Sequence record: OQ174504.1
Strand: one strand, 5' to 3'
DNA length: 64,000 bases
Source: Escherichia phage REP5
Shown here in pieces: positions 4,846 to 24,819 of this stretch. Under the pieces are notes generated by a model. The model did not search any database, was not told the origin of the DNA, and saw only the letters and a program-made list of their open reading frames with translations. How positions within the stretch are numbered: position 1 is the stretch's first letter; each line of letters starts with the position of its first letter. The position numbers and the translations under genes are program-made.

Positions 4846-5079
4846 ATGTGTAGTTCCCAATTAGAAATCGCAGATATTATAGATTTATATCAAACTGCAA
4901 AGAGTCATGGCTATATAACCTCAATTGGAAAGAATAGTCACTATGATGCTTTGACTGGAATGTATTTCAGGGCAATGGCTCAATCTAGTGAACAACACTT
5001 AATGGTTTCTTCCAGTGAGTTTACTTCGTTTCTCTATTGCAGCAAAATTATAAACCGCAGGAGAACTGAAAAATGTTAA
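4846..5079 (+). CDS. Hypothetical protein
   Basis: 77 aa ORF with AGAGGA Shine-Dalgarno upstream; first gene of plus-strand block. Confidence 0.4.
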   Translation: MCSSQLEIADIIDLYQTAKSHGYITSIGKNSHYDALTGMYFRAMAQSSEQHLMVSSSEFTSFLYCSKIINRRRTEKC

Positions 5080-5663
5080 CAGTAAGTTTTAATTACAATA
5101 GTGATGGCTCTGTATCAATTAATTCACCATATGCAAATGACCTACTTAAAGAGTTAGTAAACCAGTGTGAAAGAGGTCTTCACTATGTTCAAAATTCTTT
5201 TAAACAGAAAACTATTGCTAATAACTTGATGCGTGTAACAGTGACGACATCGAATCCAAATTATGATATTGATAGTGGAAGCCCTTACTCTTTAGTGGCT
5301 CTTGGAGAGCTAAATCAACTTAAACTTGTATGCCACGACTCAGAAACATTTCTTAAGGTATTTTCCAACCTTATCCATAATAATAAGTACAGCTACGTTG
5401 ATGGTAGTGTAAACTTCTATCCAGCAAACTATACATGCTTGTTGATTGATAATATGGGAAGTGGCAGGATTGAACCTACAGAAATTTCATTTGATGTGAA
5501 CTCTAGTCCAGATGCAGAAACAGGTAAGAACTTTGATATGAGTTACGCATTGTCACTCAGTAAGAAATCCGAGTTCATTGATTATGTCAATGGATTTGGT
5601 TTTAAGTTTGATGAGAGTATGAATCTTAAAAAACTTAAGAACCTACTTAAGACTAAAGCTTAA
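5073..5663 (+). CDS. Hypothetical protein
   Basis: 196 aa ORF, SD caggaga upstream. Confidence 0.6.
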   Translation: MLTVSFNYNSDGSVSINSPYANDLLKELVNQCERGLHYVQNSFKQKTIANNLMRVTVTTSNPNYDIDSGSPYSLVALGELNQLKLVCHDSETFLKVFSNLIHNNKYSYVDGSVNFYPANYTCLLIDNMGSGRIEPTEISFDVNSSPDAETGKNFDMSYALSLSKKSEFIDYVNGFGFKFDESMNLKKLKNLLKTKA

Positions 5664-5855
5664 GTGTGAATAGGGGCTGATGCCCCTTTAATTATTTATA
5701 AGCACACCCTATAAAGGTAAAAGTGTAAAAGACTTTATTGCTCCCACAACTACACATCAATTCCGTGAAATAGTGAAGTGCGTCATTGTTGGTGATGTGT
5801 CCCACTATATAAAGTTTATTTTGAGATTAAACGCACATTTAGAGGATAAAAAGAA

Positions 5856-6737
5856 ATGATTAAAGCAAAGACTTACCCAGACTTCAAAGAGTTTGTAAAA
5901 GGTTTTGTTGCAAATGTAAAGGCTGGTAAGAGATATGATTTTAGAACATATCAAGAGGCTATTTTACCGCTTACCTATAGCTCGTATTGGCCTGAAGCTG
6001 ATATTGCAGAAGTTAAGAAGTTTGACTATAAACCAGACTATAAAGTTCCATTTAGTGATGAGTTGCTTTACAGCATTGGTGCTCAAATGAGAACTTCTGA
6101 CTTCTTCATGGACTTACAATATGCAATTATCAATGGTAAAGACGTTGATACAGTTTATTGTGAATGGCTGGCAAGAGTTAAACCATTCTCAATGTTGAAT
6201 GCTAAGTTGAAGGATGCTGTCAAGACACCAGAAATCACTCAGCAACCAACCAATCAAACAGTAAATGAAGGTGGTACACTTACCCTAAGCATTATTGCAA
6301 CCAATGCAACTGGGTATCAATGGAAGAAAGATGGTTCTGACATTCCTTCGGCTACAGAAGCTACCTATAGCAAGTCTGGCGCACTGCCAGCAGATGCAGG
6401 TTCATACACTTGCGTTGTAACAGGTGCAGGTGGTTCTGTCACTTCCAACCCTGCAACAGTTACTGTGAACGCACTTCCAGTAATCACTCAACAGCCAACC
6501 AATCAAGAAATCAATGAAGGTGAGACCTTAACGCTGAATGTTGTGGCAACAGGTGCAACAGGTTACCAGTGGAAGAAAGGTGAGGAAGACATCCTCAATG
6601 CAACCTCTGCAACTTACACCAAAGAAGGTGCAACTGCTGCTGATTCAGGAAGCTACACCTGTGTAGTTACTGGTGCAGGTGGTTCTGTAACATCTAACGC
6701 AGCAACAGTTACAGTTAATCCAGTAGGAGGGGCATAA
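5856..6737 (+). CDS. Protein with two tandem Ig-like domains at C-terminus
   Basis: 293 aa; two near-identical ~80 aa repeats (ITQQPTNQ..GSYTCVVTGAGGSVTSN..TVTVN); stop overlaps lysozyme start (TAATG). Confidence 0.7.
   Translation: MIKAKTYPDFKEFVKGFVANVKAGKRYDFRTYQEAILPLTYSSYWPEADIAEVKKFDYKPDYKVPFSDELLYSIGAQMRTSDFFMDLQYAIINGKDVDTVYCEWLARVKPFSMLNAKLKDAVKTPEITQQPTNQTVNEGGTLTLSIIATNATGYQWKKDGSDIPSATEATYSKSGALPADAGSYTCVVTGAGGSVTSNPATVTVNALPVITQQPTNQEINEGETLTLNVVATGATGYQWKKGEEDILNATSATYTKEGATAADSGSYTCVVTGAGGSVTSNAATVTVNPVGGA
6237..6722 (+). repeat. Tandem 243-bp coding repeat (two Ig-like domain copies)
   Basis: Direct nucleotide and peptide repeat 6237-6479 / 6480-6722. Confidence 0.7.
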
Positions 6738-7201
6738 TGCAACTCTCAAGAAAAGGTTTAGAAGCTATTAAGTTCTTTGAAGGCATTAAGCTAGAGGCTT
6801 ACGAAGACTCTGCCGGAATCCCAACAATCGGGTATGGTACAATCCGTATTGACGGAAAACCTGTTAAGATGGGTATGAAGATTACCGCTGAACAAGCTGA
6901 ACAGTATCTTCTTGCAGATGTTGAAAAGTTCGTTGCAGCAGTGAACAAAGCCATCAAGGTTCCAACTTCTCAGAATGAGTTTGATGCACTTGTAAGTGAA
7001 ACATACAACATTGGTATCACAGCTATGCAGGACTCTACATTTATCAAGCGCCACAATGCTGGTAATAAGGTCGGTTGTGCAGAAGCTATGCAGTGGTGGA
7101 ACAAGGTTACAGTAAAAGGTAAGAAGGTCACTTCAAACGGCCTGAAAAACAGACGTAGAATGGAAGCTGACATTTATCTTGACAGTGTATATCCAAAGTA
7201 A
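6737..7201 (+). CDS. Lysozyme (T4 e-type, GH24) endolysin
   Basis: 154 aa; EAYEDSAGIPTIGYGT catalytic region typical of T4-type lysozyme. Confidence 0.8.
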   Translation: MQLSRKGLEAIKFFEGIKLEAYEDSAGIPTIGYGTIRIDGKPVKMGMKITAEQAEQYLLADVEKFVAAVNKAIKVPTSQNEFDALVSETYNIGITAMQDSTFIKRHNAGNKVGCAEAMQWWNKVTVKGKKVTSNGLKNRRRMEADIYLDSVYPK

Positions 7202-7252: not shown

Positions 7253-7651
7253 ATGAAACTTTGGGCTAGTGACTTTGGAACTTTTAAGTACACTCGTAAT
7301 GGCTCGCTTGTACGCATTGTCGGAAACAATGTGGTTTCAAGAGGTGACAAGGTATATACACGGTTTACTGTAGAGCTTGTTGAGCTGTCGCCTATTGAGT
7401 CTGTGAACAATGGACTCTTCAAGTTTGAGACTTACAATGTCAATGAACATGGACAATTCAACCCTCTTGGTGAAAGTGGACTTGATATTATTTCAGAACA
7501 CCCATTGACAAAAGAGCAACTTGCAAGTTATTATAAAACTGTTCTTGAAAGGCAGTTAGCAACACATGAACAAGAAGCTAACTATCATTTACAACATTGT
7601 GAAGCTTTAAGAGCAAAAATCGAACAAGCAGAGAGAGGTTTTTATGAATAA
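7253..7651 (+). CDS. Hypothetical protein
   Basis: 132 aa ORF, SD aaggagaaaa upstream. Confidence 0.6.
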   Translation: MKLWASDFGTFKYTRNGSLVRIVGNNVVSRGDKVYTRFTVELVELSPIESVNNGLFKFETYNVNEHGQFNPLGESGLDIISEHPLTKEQLASYYKTVLERQLATHEQEANYHLQHCEALRAKIEQAERGFYE

Positions 7652-8039
7652 TAGCAGTCATATCCACGTTAAAGTTGATGTCAGTCGTTACAGTGAAAAT
7701 GAAGAATTAGACCTGCAAGATGCTCTTCTCTTTGAGAAGAATGGCAATCTGCATTTGCATTTTGAAGGTACAAACACATATCTCCACAGATGCCGAGATG
7801 ATGCCGATGGTTGTCCTGTTTTTGCTTGGTACAATTTAGAGTTTCCTCTTTATGCAATCCATTATCCAGATGGTGGAGAAGACTGGACAACTCAATCAAT
7901 CTTTGATGAGCTTAATGGTGTTCCAGTTGAGCAAGAAGAGCGAGAGCCTGTTGAACTTACCTTCACCTTTATCAAAGAAGAGAAAGTAGGTGACTTGTCA
8001 GTAACTGAAGCAATTCAAGTCTCACAGGTGATTCGTTAA
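7644..8039 (+). CDS. Hypothetical protein
   Basis: 131 aa ORF overlapping upstream stop. Confidence 0.6.
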   Translation: MNNSSHIHVKVDVSRYSENEELDLQDALLFEKNGNLHLHFEGTNTYLHRCRDDADGCPVFAWYNLEFPLYAIHYPDGGEDWTTQSIFDELNGVPVEQEEREPVELTFTFIKEEKVGDLSVTEAIQVSQVIR

Positions 8040-20439: not shown

Positions 20440-20709
20440 TTACTTCCTCGTTTTTAGAACTGCTAAGATTTCTTTAGAGTCTGGTAAGAACCATGTGTAG
20501 TGATTCTCTTTGATTTCTGGATGAGTGTCAACCTTTATTTTGCACTCTTTACCAACATGCTTAAGCTGTGCTGTGACACCTTGCATAAAGATATGACACA
20601 TCACATTATCCATAACGGTTGGTGAAAAATCAAACCGCATATAAGTTTCTTTTGGTCGTGGTAGCAGTAAGTACCCTTCTACATAGAAAGTGTCTTCATT
20701 CTCTGTCAT
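20440..20709 (-). CDS. Hypothetical protein
   Basis: 89 aa ORF. Confidence 0.5.
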   Translation of the reverse strand: MTENEDTFYVEGYLLLPRPKETYMRFDFSPTVMDNVMCHIFMQGVTAQLKHVGKECKIKVDTHPEIKENHYTWFLPDSKEILAVLKTRK

Positions 20710-20975
20710 TGCTGTTTGTTTCCTAATAAAATCATATCAATAAGGTTATTAGCTTTGATTGTGCACTGGTAAAAACCATCACGATAAAACTCAAGGGCTG
20801 CTGCTACATCACTGCCTGTGCTCCCTTTGATAGTATACCGTGATTCTTCTTGAGTGTACTTATCACTCTCACTTACTTGGGAGTTTTTGAATGTACTGTT
20901 CACTTTGTTCGTTGAACACCCTGACATAATTATCAGTAACACAAACATTATAAAATTCTGGCTTAGTTTTTTCAT
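20706..20975 (-). CDS. Lipoprotein, candidate outer-membrane spanin (Rz1-like)
   Basis: Signal peptide with lipobox LIIMSGC; overlaps 3' end of upstream gene in a different frame. Confidence 0.5.
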   Translation of the reverse strand: MKKLSQNFIMFVLLIIMSGCSTNKVNSTFKNSQVSESDKYTQEESRYTIKGSTGSDVAAALEFYRDGFYQCTIKANNLIDMILLGNKQQ

Positions 20976-21216
20976 ATGTTAGTACCTCTTTTGTATGCTT
21001 ATTCTTAGCAAGCACATCTTTCAAATCATTTTTGTAATTGGTGCTCAGTGTGACTAAACCTTCCTGATAAGCATCTTTAGCAACACTTATTAGCTTCTCA
21101 TTATTTAGCTCAGCTTCAGCAACTTGATAGTCTCTGTAAGAGTATCCTCCCCAGACACCTGCTCCAACTAAGAAAACAATTATGAAAGTAGCTTGACAAA
21201 ACTCTTTAAATGTCAT
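20869..21216 (-). CDS. Candidate inner-membrane spanin (Rz-like)
   Basis: 115 aa; N-terminal transmembrane helix then charged periplasmic region; overlaps the lipoprotein gene. Confidence 0.5.
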   Translation of the reverse strand: MTFKEFCQATFIIVFLVGAGVWGGYSYRDYQVAEAELNNEKLISVAKDAYQEGLVTLSTNYKNDLKDVLAKNKHTKEVLTYEKTKPEFYNVCVTDNYVRVFNEQSEQYIQKLPSK

Positions 21217-21263: not shown

Positions 21264-22076
21264 TTATTCTTGACTGTAATAGTTGACAAGTGAAATCGCT
21301 TGATTCATCAACAACTTATCAGCCTGTGCTCCGCGACCAGCTTGTAATGCCAGTTGGTATACCTCTGTAACATATTTGTTAGACATACCTTCACAGTAGT
21401 CATTATAGTCTTCCCAAAAGGAAAATGCAGCATCACCATATAGGCGTAGTGTAATTAACATTGCTGCACGAATCCCAGAAGAATATTTCCGTTTTGCGTT
21501 TACTACACCTTTAAGCTGTACTTCAAGAGAATCAATTTGTTCCAGCTCATTTTTAAAGTCGTTAAGATATTTAACTGTTTCAGTGTTAGATACTTGTTGT
21601 ACACCGTAGTATGCAGCAACATACTTAATAGCAGTTGCCCAAGATGCTTTCATCAGTTCTGACTCTGGGTTGAAAGAAATCATCTTCATATTTCCGTAAT
21701 AAACTTCTGAAGGTTTTTCTCTTGCTAACTCAGAGTCAAAATGAGTGTACAAATCTGTGACATCCAATATGGAGTTCACATGGTATATAACTACAATCAA
21801 GTTTTCTGGTCGTGTCAGGTTACCAACTTTCCATGCCTCTCGACGTGAGTGCCCATCAATGATGAACAGTGAACTGCCGAACTTAGCCACATGGACTACT
21901 GTTTGGTCTGGTGATACGTCACCATTAAGGTGTTTACTTTTCAGACGCTTAAGTGTATTTCGTTGACGAGGGTTTTCTTTGTAACGTTTTTCATTAAGAA
22001 AATCCTCGACACTGATAATCTTAGTGTGAATTTTAACAACCTTGCCATTCAGTGCTACATTGATGCTGTTTGCCAT
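21264..22076 (-). CDS. ParB/sulfiredoxin-like domain protein
   Basis: 270 aa; IIDGHSRREAW resembles the ParB-like nuclease domain motif. Confidence 0.5.
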   Translation of the reverse strand: MANSINVALNGKVVKIHTKIISVEDFLNEKRYKENPRQRNTLKRLKSKHLNGDVSPDQTVVHVAKFGSSLFIIDGHSRREAWKVGNLTRPENLIVVIYHVNSILDVTDLYTHFDSELAREKPSEVYYGNMKMISFNPESELMKASWATAIKYVAAYYGVQQVSNTETVKYLNDFKNELEQIDSLEVQLKGVVNAKRKYSSGIRAAMLITLRLYGDAAFSFWEDYNDYCEGMSNKYVTEVYQLALQAGRGAQADKLLMNQAISLVNYYSQE

Positions 22077-22087
22077 AACTTGATACC

Positions 22088-22972
22088 TTAGTTGTGGATA
22101 ATTACTTCGTTAATATCTTTGCTTCTCTGTGCATGTATTGTGTATGAATGGCTAACCTCTGTCAAGTTAAAATTTTCAGGAATTAGTTTTGCCCATCCAT
22201 CCCACTGAGAGTTTGACATCAAAACTTTAGAGCCTAACTCCCCCCAAGAAATCATATCTTCGCATAATTTTACAGACATCTCAATGTCAAACTTTGCACC
22301 ATATTTCTGGTTGGTGTTGATATACGGGGGGTCACAGTAAATAACTGTGCCTTCTCCATGTTTTATGTCAACCCTGTCATAAGGTTCACTGCTAAGTATT
22401 ACCCTCTCATCAGTGATAAAACTGTAGAACGCGGATAGTGATTCTTTAGTTTTTGTGAAGAAAATCTCTTCTTCCAGTAAATACCCACAAGGTGTTGCAT
22501 AGTGACCTTTCATCTCTTTAGTAGTCTGCCATACACCACCAAAACTTAGTTTTTGAAGGAAAAACTGTCTGGCGTAGTACCTGTAGTCATATGCTCCCTC
22601 TTCACCAAGCAAAAGAAGTTCCTCTCTTACACTGTAATACATTTTATAGCGTAGACGGTTATGACGCTGGCCTTTCACGGCATACTCTTCCTGCATAGGT
22701 AAGGCTAAGTACCTCTTTGACAAGTACTCAAATTCTTCCATGAAGTTCTCATAGTCATCTCTGAAAGTTGTGTAAAGACCTATAATATGTTTATTTATCT
22801 CATTAATAAACACTTTTGCCTCTGGATATCTGTTATAAGCCCATATAGCTACTGAACCACCACCTGAAAACAGGTCATAGAAGTTTGTACAGTTGTCTGG
22901 AAAGACACCTAAACGCTCATACTCTTTTAATATTCTTGTTTTACCACCAAGATATTTGAACATCGGCTTCAT
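22088..22972 (-). CDS. dam: DNA adenine methyltransferase (Dam family)
   Basis: 294 aa; YLGGK N-terminus, FSGGGS SAM motif, DPPY catalytic motif. Confidence 0.8.
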   Translation of the reverse strand: MKPMFKYLGGKTRILKEYERLGVFPDNCTNFYDLFSGGGSVAIWAYNRYPEAKVFINEINKHIIGLYTTFRDDYENFMEEFEYLSKRYLALPMQEEYAVKGQRHNRLRYKMYYSVREELLLLGEEGAYDYRYYARQFFLQKLSFGGVWQTTKEMKGHYATPCGYLLEEEIFFTKTKESLSAFYSFITDERVILSSEPYDRVDIKHGEGTVIYCDPPYINTNQKYGAKFDIEMSVKLCEDMISWGELGSKVLMSNSQWDGWAKLIPENFNLTEVSHSYTIHAQRSKDINEVIIHN

Positions 22973-22990: not shown

Positions 22991-23012
22991 AAAAAGGCTC
23001 CCGAAGGAGCCT
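22991..23012 (-). terminator. Rho-independent terminator
   Basis: Hairpin ggctcccgaaggagcc with flanking A/T runs. Confidence 0.5.
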
Positions 23013-23023
23013 GTATCTTAACC

Positions 23024-23488
23024 TTAACCGAGGACTTTAGCAAGGATATTCGCAGCCATCGAAGAAGCTTTTGCAGCAGCAACTACGCCAGCTTTGACAG
23101 TGCTATCCTTAATAGCAGATACCGTTGCAGCATCAGTAAAGAGATAAGTGATTGTTTTAGAACCACTTGTAAAGGAAAGCATAAGAGTAGTTTCCAGATT
23201 GAAAGAGCGATACGGAGCACCTTCTTTAACGATACCTTCAGCACCTAACTCTGAAGCCTTACCCATATCATAGATAGTCATCAGGTTTTCTTTGTGTGCA
23301 GTCGTTGAACCAGCACCTTTTACGTGTTTTTTAACATTCAACAATGCACGATATTCACGAATGCTGCCATCAGCTTTTACATTAACAGCACGGAAGATTT
23401 TACCCTCAAAGTTGCTCTTGATAATGTTACGAACTACTTCAGATTTGTTTTCCGTAACGTCCAGTGCTACCGTAATGATATTGTTCAT
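23024..23488 (-). CDS. Hypothetical protein
   Basis: 154 aa ORF. Confidence 0.6.
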   Translation of the reverse strand: MNNIITVALDVTENKSEVVRNIIKSNFEGKIFRAVNVKADGSIREYRALLNVKKHVKGAGSTTAHKENLMTIYDMGKASELGAEGIVKEGAPYRSFNLETTLMLSFTSGSKTITYLFTDAATVSAIKDSTVKAGVVAAAKASSMAANILAKVLG

Positions 23489-23497
23489 AAGTTTCTC

Positions 23498-24193
23498 TCA
23501 ATGTTTAACTAACATGGTTTTGATGTGTGGAAGGATTCTGTTAACCTTCTGAACATTCTTCTCTGTATCTTCTATAAAACATACTATATTAAAGTAAGGA
23601 AGAATGCAAGACTGAATCATCCTAACCTTTAAACTTTCTGCACTTAGGGAATTTGTTCCAAAGCCACGCATAAAAAGCAAGTAATCATGCTCTATATTGT
23701 GTCTTAAAAACATCTCAGTAGGTATTCTCTGAGTCTCACCTCTTGCTGTCAAGAACCCAACGGCTGCATGATTTGCAATTGCATCAATGATGTGGAAAAC
23801 ATATGTTGGTTTTGCTCTTACAGCATCAAGTAAGTTGGTGTACTGTGAAAATGACCCATCAGTCAACTCTGCTGAGTAAGCTTCGTGATTAAAATATGTT
23901 AGAACACCATCAATATCTGCTAGGATAAGATTTCCTTTCTCTACAAGGTCTTTATTGACTATGACTAGGCTATCACGTCTTACACCTATGGCTTTCCCAG
24001 TCTCTTTATCGACAACATTCACAATTGGCTCCGGTGTGTGGAACTCTTCGAGTGAACATACAACTTCTCTTGCAGTGTCTTCAAAATCCCTACACTGTTC
24101 TGGAGTCCATACACAGGAATCAAGACCTAACTCATGAGGATGTAAGTCGTAAGCATGACACAGTACTTCATCAGACTTTTTTAATTTTTTCAT
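23498..24193 (-). CDS. HAD-like hydrolase domain protein (possible nucleotidase/phosphatase)
   Basis: 231 aa; LILADIDGVLT resembles HAD motif I. Confidence 0.5.
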   Translation of the reverse strand: MKKLKKSDEVLCHAYDLHPHELGLDSCVWTPEQCRDFEDTAREVVCSLEEFHTPEPIVNVVDKETGKAIGVRRDSLVIVNKDLVEKGNLILADIDGVLTYFNHEAYSAELTDGSFSQYTNLLDAVRAKPTYVFHIIDAIANHAAVGFLTARGETQRIPTEMFLRHNIEHDYLLFMRGFGTNSLSAESLKVRMIQSCILPYFNIVCFIEDTEKNVQKVNRILPHIKTMLVKH

Positions 24194-24719
24194 GGTTTAC
24201 CTTAGAAATGTTTGTTGCAAATTCACATTGAGCAATGACTTTCATGTTGTTATAGACATCTTGAGAATATTTCTTAGCTTTAGGGATTTTGTACGAATAC
24301 CCAGCATTATATGATGCTAAAACTTTTTGTAAAGTCTTCTTTGACTTTGGCTGACCATGCACCTTTGTCCAAAACTCAAGCTCTTTGTGAGTTTCCTTCG
24401 CAGCATAATCAAAGTCTCTTAAGAGTTTCTTTTTAGCCACATTAGGGCTAATTTTGTTACGCTTTACAACAGTCTTCAAGTGATTCTGGAAAATACCATA
24501 ATCATGTGTCTTTTTATTCTCTACCTTCAGACCTAACTCTGACTCTTGTAAGGCTATAGCAGCTAGAGTGATACCCCAACCTTTACCCATGTTGTTCTCA
24601 CCATACTGGTAAGCTTTTAACATGTTTACTTTTTGGCTAATTGATAGCTCTGGGCAGTCAACTGCATAAGATAAGTGTGCTGTAAACATTAAGCACAAAC
24701 CTAGAATCAATTTCTTCAT
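24171..24719 (-). CDS. Secreted lytic transglycosylase-like protein
   Basis: 182 aa; signal peptide; ALQESELG, YGIFQ and SYNAGYS resemble SLT-domain motifs. Confidence 0.6.
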   Translation of the reverse strand: MKKLILGLCLMFTAHLSYAVDCPELSISQKVNMLKAYQYGENNMGKGWGITLAAIALQESELGLKVENKKTHDYGIFQNHLKTVVKRNKISPNVAKKKLLRDFDYAAKETHKELEFWTKVHGQPKSKKTLQKVLASYNAGYSYKIPKAKKYSQDVYNNMKVIAQCEFATNISKVNHEKIKKV

Positions 24720-24780
24720 TGGTTCTCCTGTTTAGTTTATCGTGACAACAATTATACAGCACTCTGCACAAAATACAAAT

Positions 24781-24802
24781 AAAAAAGGCCGCCGAAGCAG
24801 CC
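24781..24802 (-). terminator. Terminator-like hairpin
   Basis: ggccgccgaagcagcc hairpin flanked by A and T runs. Confidence 0.45.
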
Positions 24803-24819
24803 TTTTAAGAAATTACTTA

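Follow-up and report, generated by a model that had tools for sequence, protein, structure and literature searches.

A Vs.1-family lytic transglycosylase-like protein with a predicted export signal in Escherichia phage REP5

The gene and its family

We analyzed a gene for a small SLT-domain protein, here called the LT gene after the lytic transglycosylase (LT) activity predicted for its product, in a 64,000-nucleotide stretch of DNA from Escherichia phage REP5 (sequence record OQ174504.1). This stretch, referred to below as the window, comes from a Felix O1-like myovirus of the genus Felixounavirus; over 5 kb surrounding the gene, identity is 96.6% to Escherichia phage REP7 and 95% to Salmonella phage HMD-P8. 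The order of genes is that of the genus, namely rIIA, rIIB, LT, a PseT-like polynucleotide kinase (PNK), an open reading frame (ORF) of 154 amino acids (aa), a Dam methylase, a 270-aa ORF, an i-spanin and an o-spanin. According to the ORF listing, the LT gene is a 182-codon reading frame at 24171-24719 on the minus strand, with its ATG at 24719 and its stop codon at 24171-24173, and a Shine-Dalgarno sequence, AGGAG, can be read at 24725-24729, 5 nt 5′ of the ATG. The product reads MKKLILGLCLMFTAHLSYAVDCPELSISQK...LQESELG...DYGIFQ...SYNAGY...KYSQDV. On the basis of the ORF listing, PHROG, Pfam and BLASTP, the coding sequence (24171..24719, minus strand) was annotated as the 182-aa precursor of a Vs.1-family (PHROG 600) SLT-domain LT that is predicted to be exported. 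The PHROG 600 profile matched the protein with an E-value of 1.2e-57 over residues 1-170 of 182. A tblastn search with the LT protein gave matches in 2,124 of 50,697 phage records, and Salmonella phage FSL SP-107 encodes a protein that is 100% identical. An exhaustive profile search retrieved 1,270 cluster representatives (50% identity) at E <= 1e-3, of which 604 reached E <= 1e-10; nearly all are 160-200 residues long and align from the N-terminus onward. The ORF is real and not a chance occurrence; an earlier, sequence-only reading had proposed a secreted LT-like protein at this position, and its reading frame was confirmed exactly, on the minus strand and with both the Shine-Dalgarno sequence and the PHROG 600 match. 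Three antisense ORFs on the plus strand (24025-24231, 24192-24314 and 24311-24436) were rejected as short and without support, and no second copy of the Vs.1/LT family was found in the 64-kb window.

The LT protein is the Felix O1 counterpart of T4 Vs.1, a relationship that the sequence-only reading had overlooked. By BLASTP, T2 Vs.1 is 31% identical to it over the full length (E 5e-16), and T2 Vs.1 has a signal-like N-terminus of its own, MRKALLAGLLAISMMAHS, together with the same motifs. T4/T2 Vs.1 (UniProt P13311) resembles the LT protein in its membership of PHROG 600, its length of 181-182 aa, its signal-like N-terminus, its motifs (E-S, G-x-F-Q, S-Y-N-x-G and Tyr) and the location of its gene in a pre-late accessory block. 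Unlike the LT protein, the T4-type members lack Asp73 and the pair Cys22/Cys165, both considered below, and have a longer loop past the first helix. The neighbors also differ, with T4 vs.1 lying between regB and vs (regB/vs/tk) and the LT gene of Felix O1-like phages between rIIB and pseT. The tblastn matches at 30-37% identity comprised vs.1 of T4, T2 and RB-type phages, and further matches in Ackermannviridae and in phages of Aeromonas, Vibrio, Acinetobacter, Klebsiella and Pseudoalteromonas; judged from this host spectrum, the carriers of the family are large virulent phages of Gram-negative bacteria. Among 166 members, the shared traits are a single domain of ~160-200 aa and an N-terminal hydrophobic export signal. 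Within this family, the LT protein is the ortholog of Felix O1 gp3 and SUSP1 AVU07_agp083. The annotation table of the CRISPRi-ART study places T4 vs.1 and AVU07_agp083 in PHROG 600, with "unknown function", and its supplement equates AVU07_agp083 with Felix01p003 (PMC11879866).

The gene is not new, being already known and annotated as a member of Vs.1/PHROG 600. The similarity between Vs.1 and SLT domains was in print by 2006 at the latest (Nolan et al., 2006), and this comparative-genomics remark was the only literature on vs.1 function that we found; no paper on a Felixounavirus lytic transglycosylase was found either. In GenBank, the Felixounavirus gene is labelled "lytic transglycosylase domain-containing protein", "putative lysin", "hypothetical protein" or, wrongly, "endoribonuclease". 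Labels of the last kind ("endoribonuclease", "RegB" or "site-specific RNA endonuclease") were seen on Vs.1/LT homologs in MN850587 (mistaenkt), OL964736 (selz), MT074478 (moki) and ON782582 (ECP52). Some RegB-type labels in T4-like phages may belong to the adjacent regB gene; in the Felixounavirus mistaenkt, the endoribonuclease-type label has been put on the LT ortholog, evidently through an error in annotation transfer.

Predicted export signal, catalytic motifs and fold

The N-terminus of the LT protein has the three-part form of a Sec signal peptide, as scored by a home-made heuristic for the n-, h- and c-regions. The predicted n-region is MKK, with a charge of +2; the predicted h-region, LILGLCLMFTAHL, comprises 13 residues with a mean Kyte-Doolittle value of 2.58 over the best 10 aa; and the predicted c-region, S-Y-A, carries small residues at positions -3 and -1, with cleavage at A19|V20. 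The predicted signal peptide, MKKLILGLCLMFTAHLSYA, would occupy codons 1-19 (24663..24719, minus strand) and end with cleavage after A19. The same heuristic found the tripartite N-terminus in 19 of 19 diverse aligned homologs, whose sequences in this region are unrelated. Of 166 family members, 157 have it as well, and the remaining nine resemble gene calls that start inside the signal. In the AlphaFold (AF2) model, residues 1-19 have predicted local distance difference test (pLDDT) values below 50, and the body of the protein has values above 90. Taken together, these features suggest that the LT protein is exported and cleaved after Ala19. A lipoprotein reading, in which Cys9 within L-G-L-C would be the modified residue, was rejected since the -1 residue is Leu and only five hydrophobic residues precede; it is further weakened by the retention of Cys9 in close relatives only. 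Signal-anchor-release (SAR) endolysins have a weakly hydrophobic, Gly/Ala/Ser-rich transmembrane domain of ~18-20 residues and no signal-peptidase site. By the heuristic, the h-region of the LT protein is ~13 residues long and Leu/Ile/Phe-rich and is followed by S-Y-A|V, and a SAR anchor was rejected as well.

The mature protein, residues 20-182 (24174..24662, minus strand), would have 163 aa, a mass of 18.65 kDa and an isoelectric point (pI) of 9.7. It begins with an N-terminal helix carrying Q29, continues with a GH23/SLT core at ~48-167 and ends in a disordered tail (171-182), the coding region of which overlaps the start of the PNK gene. Two cysteines stand at opposite ends, with Cys22 just past the site of predicted cleavage and Cys165 within the final helix. 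Across the 166 members, 79 have both, 71 have neither and 16 have a single one (Fisher p 1e-28, a value that ignores shared ancestry). Such paired gain and loss is the pattern of a disulfide and fits an oxidizing compartment, so that a Cys22-Cys165 disulfide is probably formed, and the pattern lends independent support to an extracytoplasmic location.

Family-1 lytic transglycosylases are defined by the motifs E-S, G-x-x-Q, (A/S)-Y-N-x-G and a Tyr. All four have counterparts in the LT protein, and Glu59, Tyr137, Gly140 and Tyr151 were invariant in 166 of 166 family sequences. Motif I is E59-S60 within LQESELG, placed by the AF2 model at the C-terminal end of helix 48-60, ahead of a beta-hairpin; residue 60 is Ser in 160 of 166 sequences and Thr in the remainder. 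The Glu59 codon, GAG (24543..24545, minus strand), would specify the catalytic acid/base, a prediction based on its invariance and on its alignment with the region of the catalytic Glu in EtgA and goose lysozyme. Motif II is G75-I-F-Q78, with Gly in 157 of 166 and position 78 occupied by Gln in 92 and His in 65, and motif III is S136-Y137-N138-A-G140. Asn138 is conserved in 94% of the 166 sequences, and Gly63 and Gln29 in 98%. Against Pfam SLT (PF01464), residues 51-148 of the LT protein gave an E-value of 7.9e-4 and 19.4 bits, the gathering score being 21.3; the same model matched 19 of 19 diverse members of an alignment of the family (A2) at E <= 0.01, with 8.2e-12 as the best value. Both the signal peptide, as a prediction, and the SLT-like catalytic motifs named in the sequence-only reading were borne out, the former by the n/h/c analysis and an architecture kept across homologs, the latter by conservation in 166 sequences and by the A2 members that match PF01464. 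Another feature of the family, beyond the canonical LT motifs, is a signature of its own in the helix preceding the SLT core, formed by Gln29 (codon 24633-24635, minus strand; kept in 163 of 166) and Gly40 (145 of 166).

The fold is the lysozyme-like fold of GH23. The figures tabulated beside it, which carry no label as to their kind, are 13.2 for MltF, 11.9 for Pseudomonas Slt, 11.6 for Slt70, 11.6 for MltC, 11.5 for goose-type lysozyme, 10.9 for MltE and 10.1 for EtgA. The top Foldseek matches in the PDB, which had modest E-values, were EtgA, a GH23 chitinase and g-type lysozymes; the nearest predicted viral structures were other small phage "SLT domain" proteins (template-modelling score, TM, ~0.7), and weaker matches included PRD1 P7, T7 gp16 and tape-measure-linked LT domains. 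In the sequence-profile searches, EtgA was the nearest protein of solved structure (E 6.9e-4 with alignment A1 and 2.2e-6 with A2), followed by the goose lysozymes, and a phmmer search of the PDB with the single LT protein matched no chain.

With EtgA, which cleaves peptidoglycan for the type III secretion system of enteropathogenic Escherichia coli and is the best PDB profile match to the family, the LT protein shares the form of a small SLT domain, one for which Sec export is predicted. The LT protein is only ~19% identical to EtgA, however, and differs in its extra N-terminal helix with Q29 and, in about half of the LT family, in the putative disulfide pair. Unlike EtgA, IagB, IpgF and VirB1, the specialized LTs of type III/IV secretion systems, it is not encoded in a secretion gene cluster, is not known to dock to a secretion apparatus and has no known partner such as the EscI rod; its neighbors are rIIA, rIIB, the PseT kinase, the Dam methylase and the spanins, with no type III or IV secretion or flagellar cluster. 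For want of any tie to such an apparatus, we place the LT protein outside the EtgA group. In contrast to Slt70, MltC, MltD, MltE and MltF, it has no lipid anchor, superhelical or ABC-type domains, or LysM. Compared with the bacterial family-1 enzymes, the LT protein consists of the catalytic domain alone, is phage-encoded and is divergent in sequence.

Timing of expression and proposed role

Directly after the rIIB stop codon, and parting rIIB from the LT gene, lies a strong intrinsic terminator (24783..24806, minus strand; terminator scan) with a 10-bp GC-rich stem, a UUCG-type loop and a U-run. It folds with -14.7 kcal/mol (z -4.0; 0 of 200 shuffles were as stable) and is annotated in phage ASO1A. 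A candidate sigma70-like promoter, TTGTAT-N16-TATAAT (24751..24778, minus strand), was read from the sequence and is likewise annotated in ASO1A; it lies ~30 nt 5′ of the LT ATG and has a perfect -10, and it constitutes weak evidence since it fell under the threshold of the consensus scan. The next gene of the unit is the PseT-like polynucleotide kinase/phosphatase (23498..24193, minus strand; ORF list and annotations of relatives), the start of which overlaps the LT stop by 23 nt, and the third is the 154-aa ORF (23024-23488, minus strand; ORF list), past which a second intrinsic terminator (22995-23012, minus strand; terminator scan) closes the unit. The overlap of LT and PNK and the position of the next terminator only past the 154-aa ORF indicate a unit LT-PNK-ORF154. 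Adjacency of LT and PNK is retained in relatives at 37-44% identity. A functional link between LT and the PseT kinase was nevertheless rejected, since the adjacency, though kept in Ounavirinae-like phages, is not shared by T4-like ones, and there is no obvious mechanism.

In Felix O1, transcripts of ORF 3 were maximal at 25 min and those of late and structural genes at 60 min by reverse-transcription PCR (RT-PCR); gene 1 is rIIA in the Felix O1 paper, and ORF 3 is therefore gp3, the LT gene, by order. T4 vs.1 has been classed as "early RNA, middle protein", which implies that the Vs.1 protein is made. We infer that the LT gene is expressed before the late genes in this phage as well. The early block to which the sequence-only reading had assigned the gene agrees with this pre-late timing, which is backed by the promoter-like site of its own past the rIIB terminator and by the T4 and Felix O1 data. 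In genome-wide translational knockdown screens, T4 vs.1 was scored "Semi-Fit" (0.81, p 0.099) and SUSP1 AVU07_agp083 "Not Fit" (1.02, p 0.28; PMC11879866), which hints at a weak or absent requirement for a Vs.1-type gene in laboratory culture. Mass spectrometry of the Felix O1 virion identified 17 proteins, and gp3 was not among them.

From the observed sequence, motifs, fold, family membership and genomic position, we infer the following biological purpose. The LT protein probably cleaves peptidoglycan in the periplasm, as an accessory enzyme that works from inside the infected cell ahead of lysis. Its precursor would be exported by the host Sec system and cut by signal peptidase I after Ala19, releasing a basic, soluble 18.6-kDa enzyme to the periplasm, where the Cys22-Cys165 disulfide probably forms. 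As a minimal GH23/family-1 LT, with Glu59 at the helix end facing the substrate groove as its single acid/base catalyst, it would cleave the bond between N-acetylmuramic acid (MurNAc) and N-acetylglucosamine (GlcNAc) of the host, MurNAc-beta-1,4-GlcNAc, most likely yielding 1,6-anhydroMurNAc. Transcription ahead of the late genes, at the head of the short LT-PseT kinase-ORF154 unit past the rIIB terminator, would mean that the enzyme attacks the wall of the phage-producing cell from within. It may do so minutes before the holin and endolysin, in an accessory function and not as the lysin, the sacculus being loosened or locally opened in the manner of the EtgA-type exported "space-making" transglycosylases, and the effect on phage yield in laboratory culture would be small. 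The reading as an accessory wall-loosening enzyme follows from a protein that, judged from its relatives, is made pre-late, is little needed in the laboratory and is not part of the virion. Of the two roles put forward in the sequence-only reading, peptidoglycan remodelling is favored and assistance in DNA entry disfavored.

Several points weigh against this interpretation. The cleavage site, like the signal peptide as a whole, comes from the home-made heuristic; the LT protein taken alone falls narrowly under the Pfam SLT gathering score; and NCBIfam has no meaningful model for it, the sole match being a spurious one to ArpU (E 0.009). As regards timing, the -35 of the candidate promoter is poor (3/6), and the RT-PCR assignment in Felix O1, ORF 3 = gp3, goes by gene order. 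The only mutant-type phenotype is the borderline score in the knockdown screen, no measured activity, localization or export was found in the literature for any family member, and loosening of the wall before lysis is proposed by analogy. The remaining points on this side concern chemistry and are taken up next.

GH23 includes both lytic transglycosylases and muramidases, and the LT protein might be a goose-type lysozyme-like hydrolase (muramidase), with the same location and role but another chemistry. Goose-type lysozymes are eukaryotic secreted defense enzymes. As hydrolases, they were, with the GH23 chitinase, the best Foldseek matches, and they came second in the PDB profile search; in addition, Asp73 in the beta-hairpin aligns with Asp60 of EtgA, 14 residues after the catalytic Glu vs. 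18 in EtgA, and it is this Asp60 that is changed in PDB entry 4xp8, "EtgA D60N mutant". Only 34% of family members, however, have Asp at position 73, those of the T4 type having Ser or Ala there, which leaves Glu59 as the sole universally conserved carboxylate and argues for a single-acid LT mechanism; likewise, the auxiliary Asp residues of goose-type lysozymes are not conserved in the phage LT family. Conservation thus favors lytic-transglycosylase over hydrolase chemistry, and a muramidase seems rather unlikely. That the protein is catalytically dead and serves as a periplasmic peptidoglycan-binding or inhibitor-titrating factor, for instance by drawing off host lysozyme/LT inhibitors (Ivy, MliC or PliG) as a decoy or by blocking superinfecting phages, is very improbable, given that the catalytic Glu and the motifs of the substrate groove are invariant in 166 sequences down to <30% identity, as purifying selection on an active enzyme predicts.

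The main alternative to an accessory enzyme is a second, Sec-delivered endolysin that causes or times lysis, either as a holin-independent lysin or as a back-up of the GH24 enzyme that builds up in the periplasm and is unleashed upon membrane depolarization. Exported endolysins do exist in other phages, as exemplified by Lys44 of Oenococcus phage fOg44 and by the SAR endolysins. Several GenBank records read "putative lysin", and vs.1 was credited with "some role in cell lysis" as a suggestion by Nolan et al. (2006). Lysis genes also lie on the same strand 3 kb downstream, where the i-spanin (20869-21216, minus strand) and the overlapping o-spanin (20706-20975, minus strand; lipobox MSGC) were recognized from the ORF list and from annotations of HMD-P8, JLBYU28 and SUSP1, with no Pfam match for either; in SUSP1, which has no Dam methylase cassette (see below), the order is LT-PNK-hypothetical-i-spanin-o-spanin, with the spanin genes directly adjoining the others. 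A canonical, cytoplasmic endolysin is already present, however, namely a 154-aa T4-type lysozyme of GH24 without a signal sequence (6737..7201, plus strand; Pfam Phage_lysozyme PF00959, E 1.1e-40), which is annotated as endolysin in HMD-P8. It lies 17 kb from the LT gene on the opposite strand, in agreement with the sequence-only reading, which had described the LT-like protein as separate from the endolysin and encoded far from the lysozyme. When T4 is mutated in gene e, lysis fails even though vs.1 is intact, so that T4 Vs.1 cannot replace the endolysin. Expression is pre-late in T4 and apparently also in Felix O1, knockdown of the SUSP1 ortholog caused no fitness defect, and the h-region is that of an ordinary short signal with an AXA-type site and not a SAR anchor. 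With a predicted signal peptide, pre-late homologs and a separate GH24 enzyme beside it, the LT protein does not have the properties of a canonical holin-dependent endolysin, and we consider a second lysin unlikely. A virion-associated enzyme that pierces the wall for genome delivery, like T4 gp5, T7 gp16 or PRD1 P7, is extremely improbable. Tail or internal proteins with an SLT or lysozyme domain do occur in many phages, and such proteins were among the weaker structural matches. T7 gp16, PRD1 P7, phiKZ gp144 and gp181 and T4 gp5 resemble the LT protein in having GH23 or lysozyme-like domains but, unlike it, are virion parts or holin-dependent endolysins and have no signal peptide. The LT protein is a single-domain 18-kDa protein without a structural module, its gene belongs to the rII-pseT block with pre-late expression, and gp3 was missing from the 17 virion proteins of Felix O1, a relative and not this phage; the cryo-electron microscopy paper on the Felixounavirus Bas63 names a transglycosylase only for a Gram-positive bacteriocin. 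Moreover, the predicted cleavable signal would take the protein out of the cytoplasm, where virions are assembled, and this, together with the virion proteome, is what disfavors the DNA-entry role.

For the window itself, the accessory-enzyme reading amounts to a correct but routine annotation, the identical protein being already in GenBank. In large virulent phages that infect Gram-negative bacteria, T4 included, few accessory genes are as widespread as those for Vs.1-type LTs, and these enzymes pose a puzzle, in that a wall-cutting enzyme with an export signal and an apparently intact catalytic site would be sent to the periplasm long before lysis. It is conceivable, though quite unlikely in our estimate, that Vs.1-type enzymes constitute a conserved, phage-specific pre-lysis step that opens the sacculus from the periplasm early in infection and that is common to T4-like, Felix O1-like, Vi1-like and some jumbo phages. 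If so, the step might let periplasm-spanning assemblies thread the wall (spanin bridges, holin-antiholin sensing), alter the response of the envelope to superinfection or blunt envelope-based host defense. Any such purpose would account for the Semi-Fit score of T4 vs.1 and for retention of the gene in >2,000 sequenced phages. The link between Felix O1 gp3, T4 Vs.1 and EtgA provides a concrete and cheaply testable hypothesis and also flags mislabelled records.

Neighboring genes and related sequence records

Past the LT-PNK-ORF154 unit, the window contains a Dam-type N6-adenine methylase gene (22088-22972, minus strand; Pfam MethyltransfD12, E 2e-23) and, adjoining it, the 270-aa ORF (21264-22076, minus strand), which has no Pfam match. 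The two together (21264-22972) resemble a variable cassette, being present in REP7, HMD-P8 and SP116 and absent from ASO1A, REP6, the FSL SP phages and SUSP1, in which the spanin genes come immediately after the 154-aa ORF. In the phages that lack the cassette, megablast matches begin only at query position 975.

Close to the endolysin gene, a 131-aa ORF (7644-8039, plus strand) corresponds to one labelled "D-alanyl-D-alanine carboxypeptidase" in HMD-P8, the two being equated by position with an indel offset. It had no Pfam match at E <= 0.01; the label accordingly looks unsupported, and there is probably no third wall-active enzyme at this site. A 293-aa ORF (5856-6737, plus strand) ends exactly at the start of the endolysin gene and contains two tandem repeats of ~85 aa (ITQQPTNQ...GYQWKK...GSYTCVVTGAGGSVTSN.ATVTVN) resembling Ig-like domains; its equivalent in HMD-P8 is a "tail protein / immunoglobulin domain-containing protein". 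The Felix O1 paper points to a tail protein, gp36, that adjoins the lysin (gp35) at a great distance from the remaining morphogenesis genes.

When the contexts of distant homologs were examined, all proved to be phage genomes. One homolog, in a divergent Felix O1-like contig, had the same order of genes, NAPRTase-rIIA-rIIB-x-SLT-PNK. In a metagenomic phage (ENA ERZ21849166, contig_2694), a Vs.1-like SLT gene (P0019) directly follows a homolog of Gad2 (anti-Gabija), and the genes at 1729-2325, 4989-5921 and 6001-6579 place the SLT near a Mom-like gene and a PNKP gene in an accessory, counter-defense-rich region. Another Vs.1-like SLT (P0020) was located at 6001-6582 of contig ACBEZJ010000004.1 (214,766 bp) in the Campylobacter coli assembly GCA_053226485.1; a Chimallin_Phikzvirus gene lies 1.4 kb away, and the contig therefore looks like the genome of a nucleus-forming jumbo phage. 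Records of "Campylobacter phage A132/A126" (MG065664 and MG065668; host C. jejuni) are 94.6% identical to REP5 over 5 kb and are probably mislabelled or contaminants.

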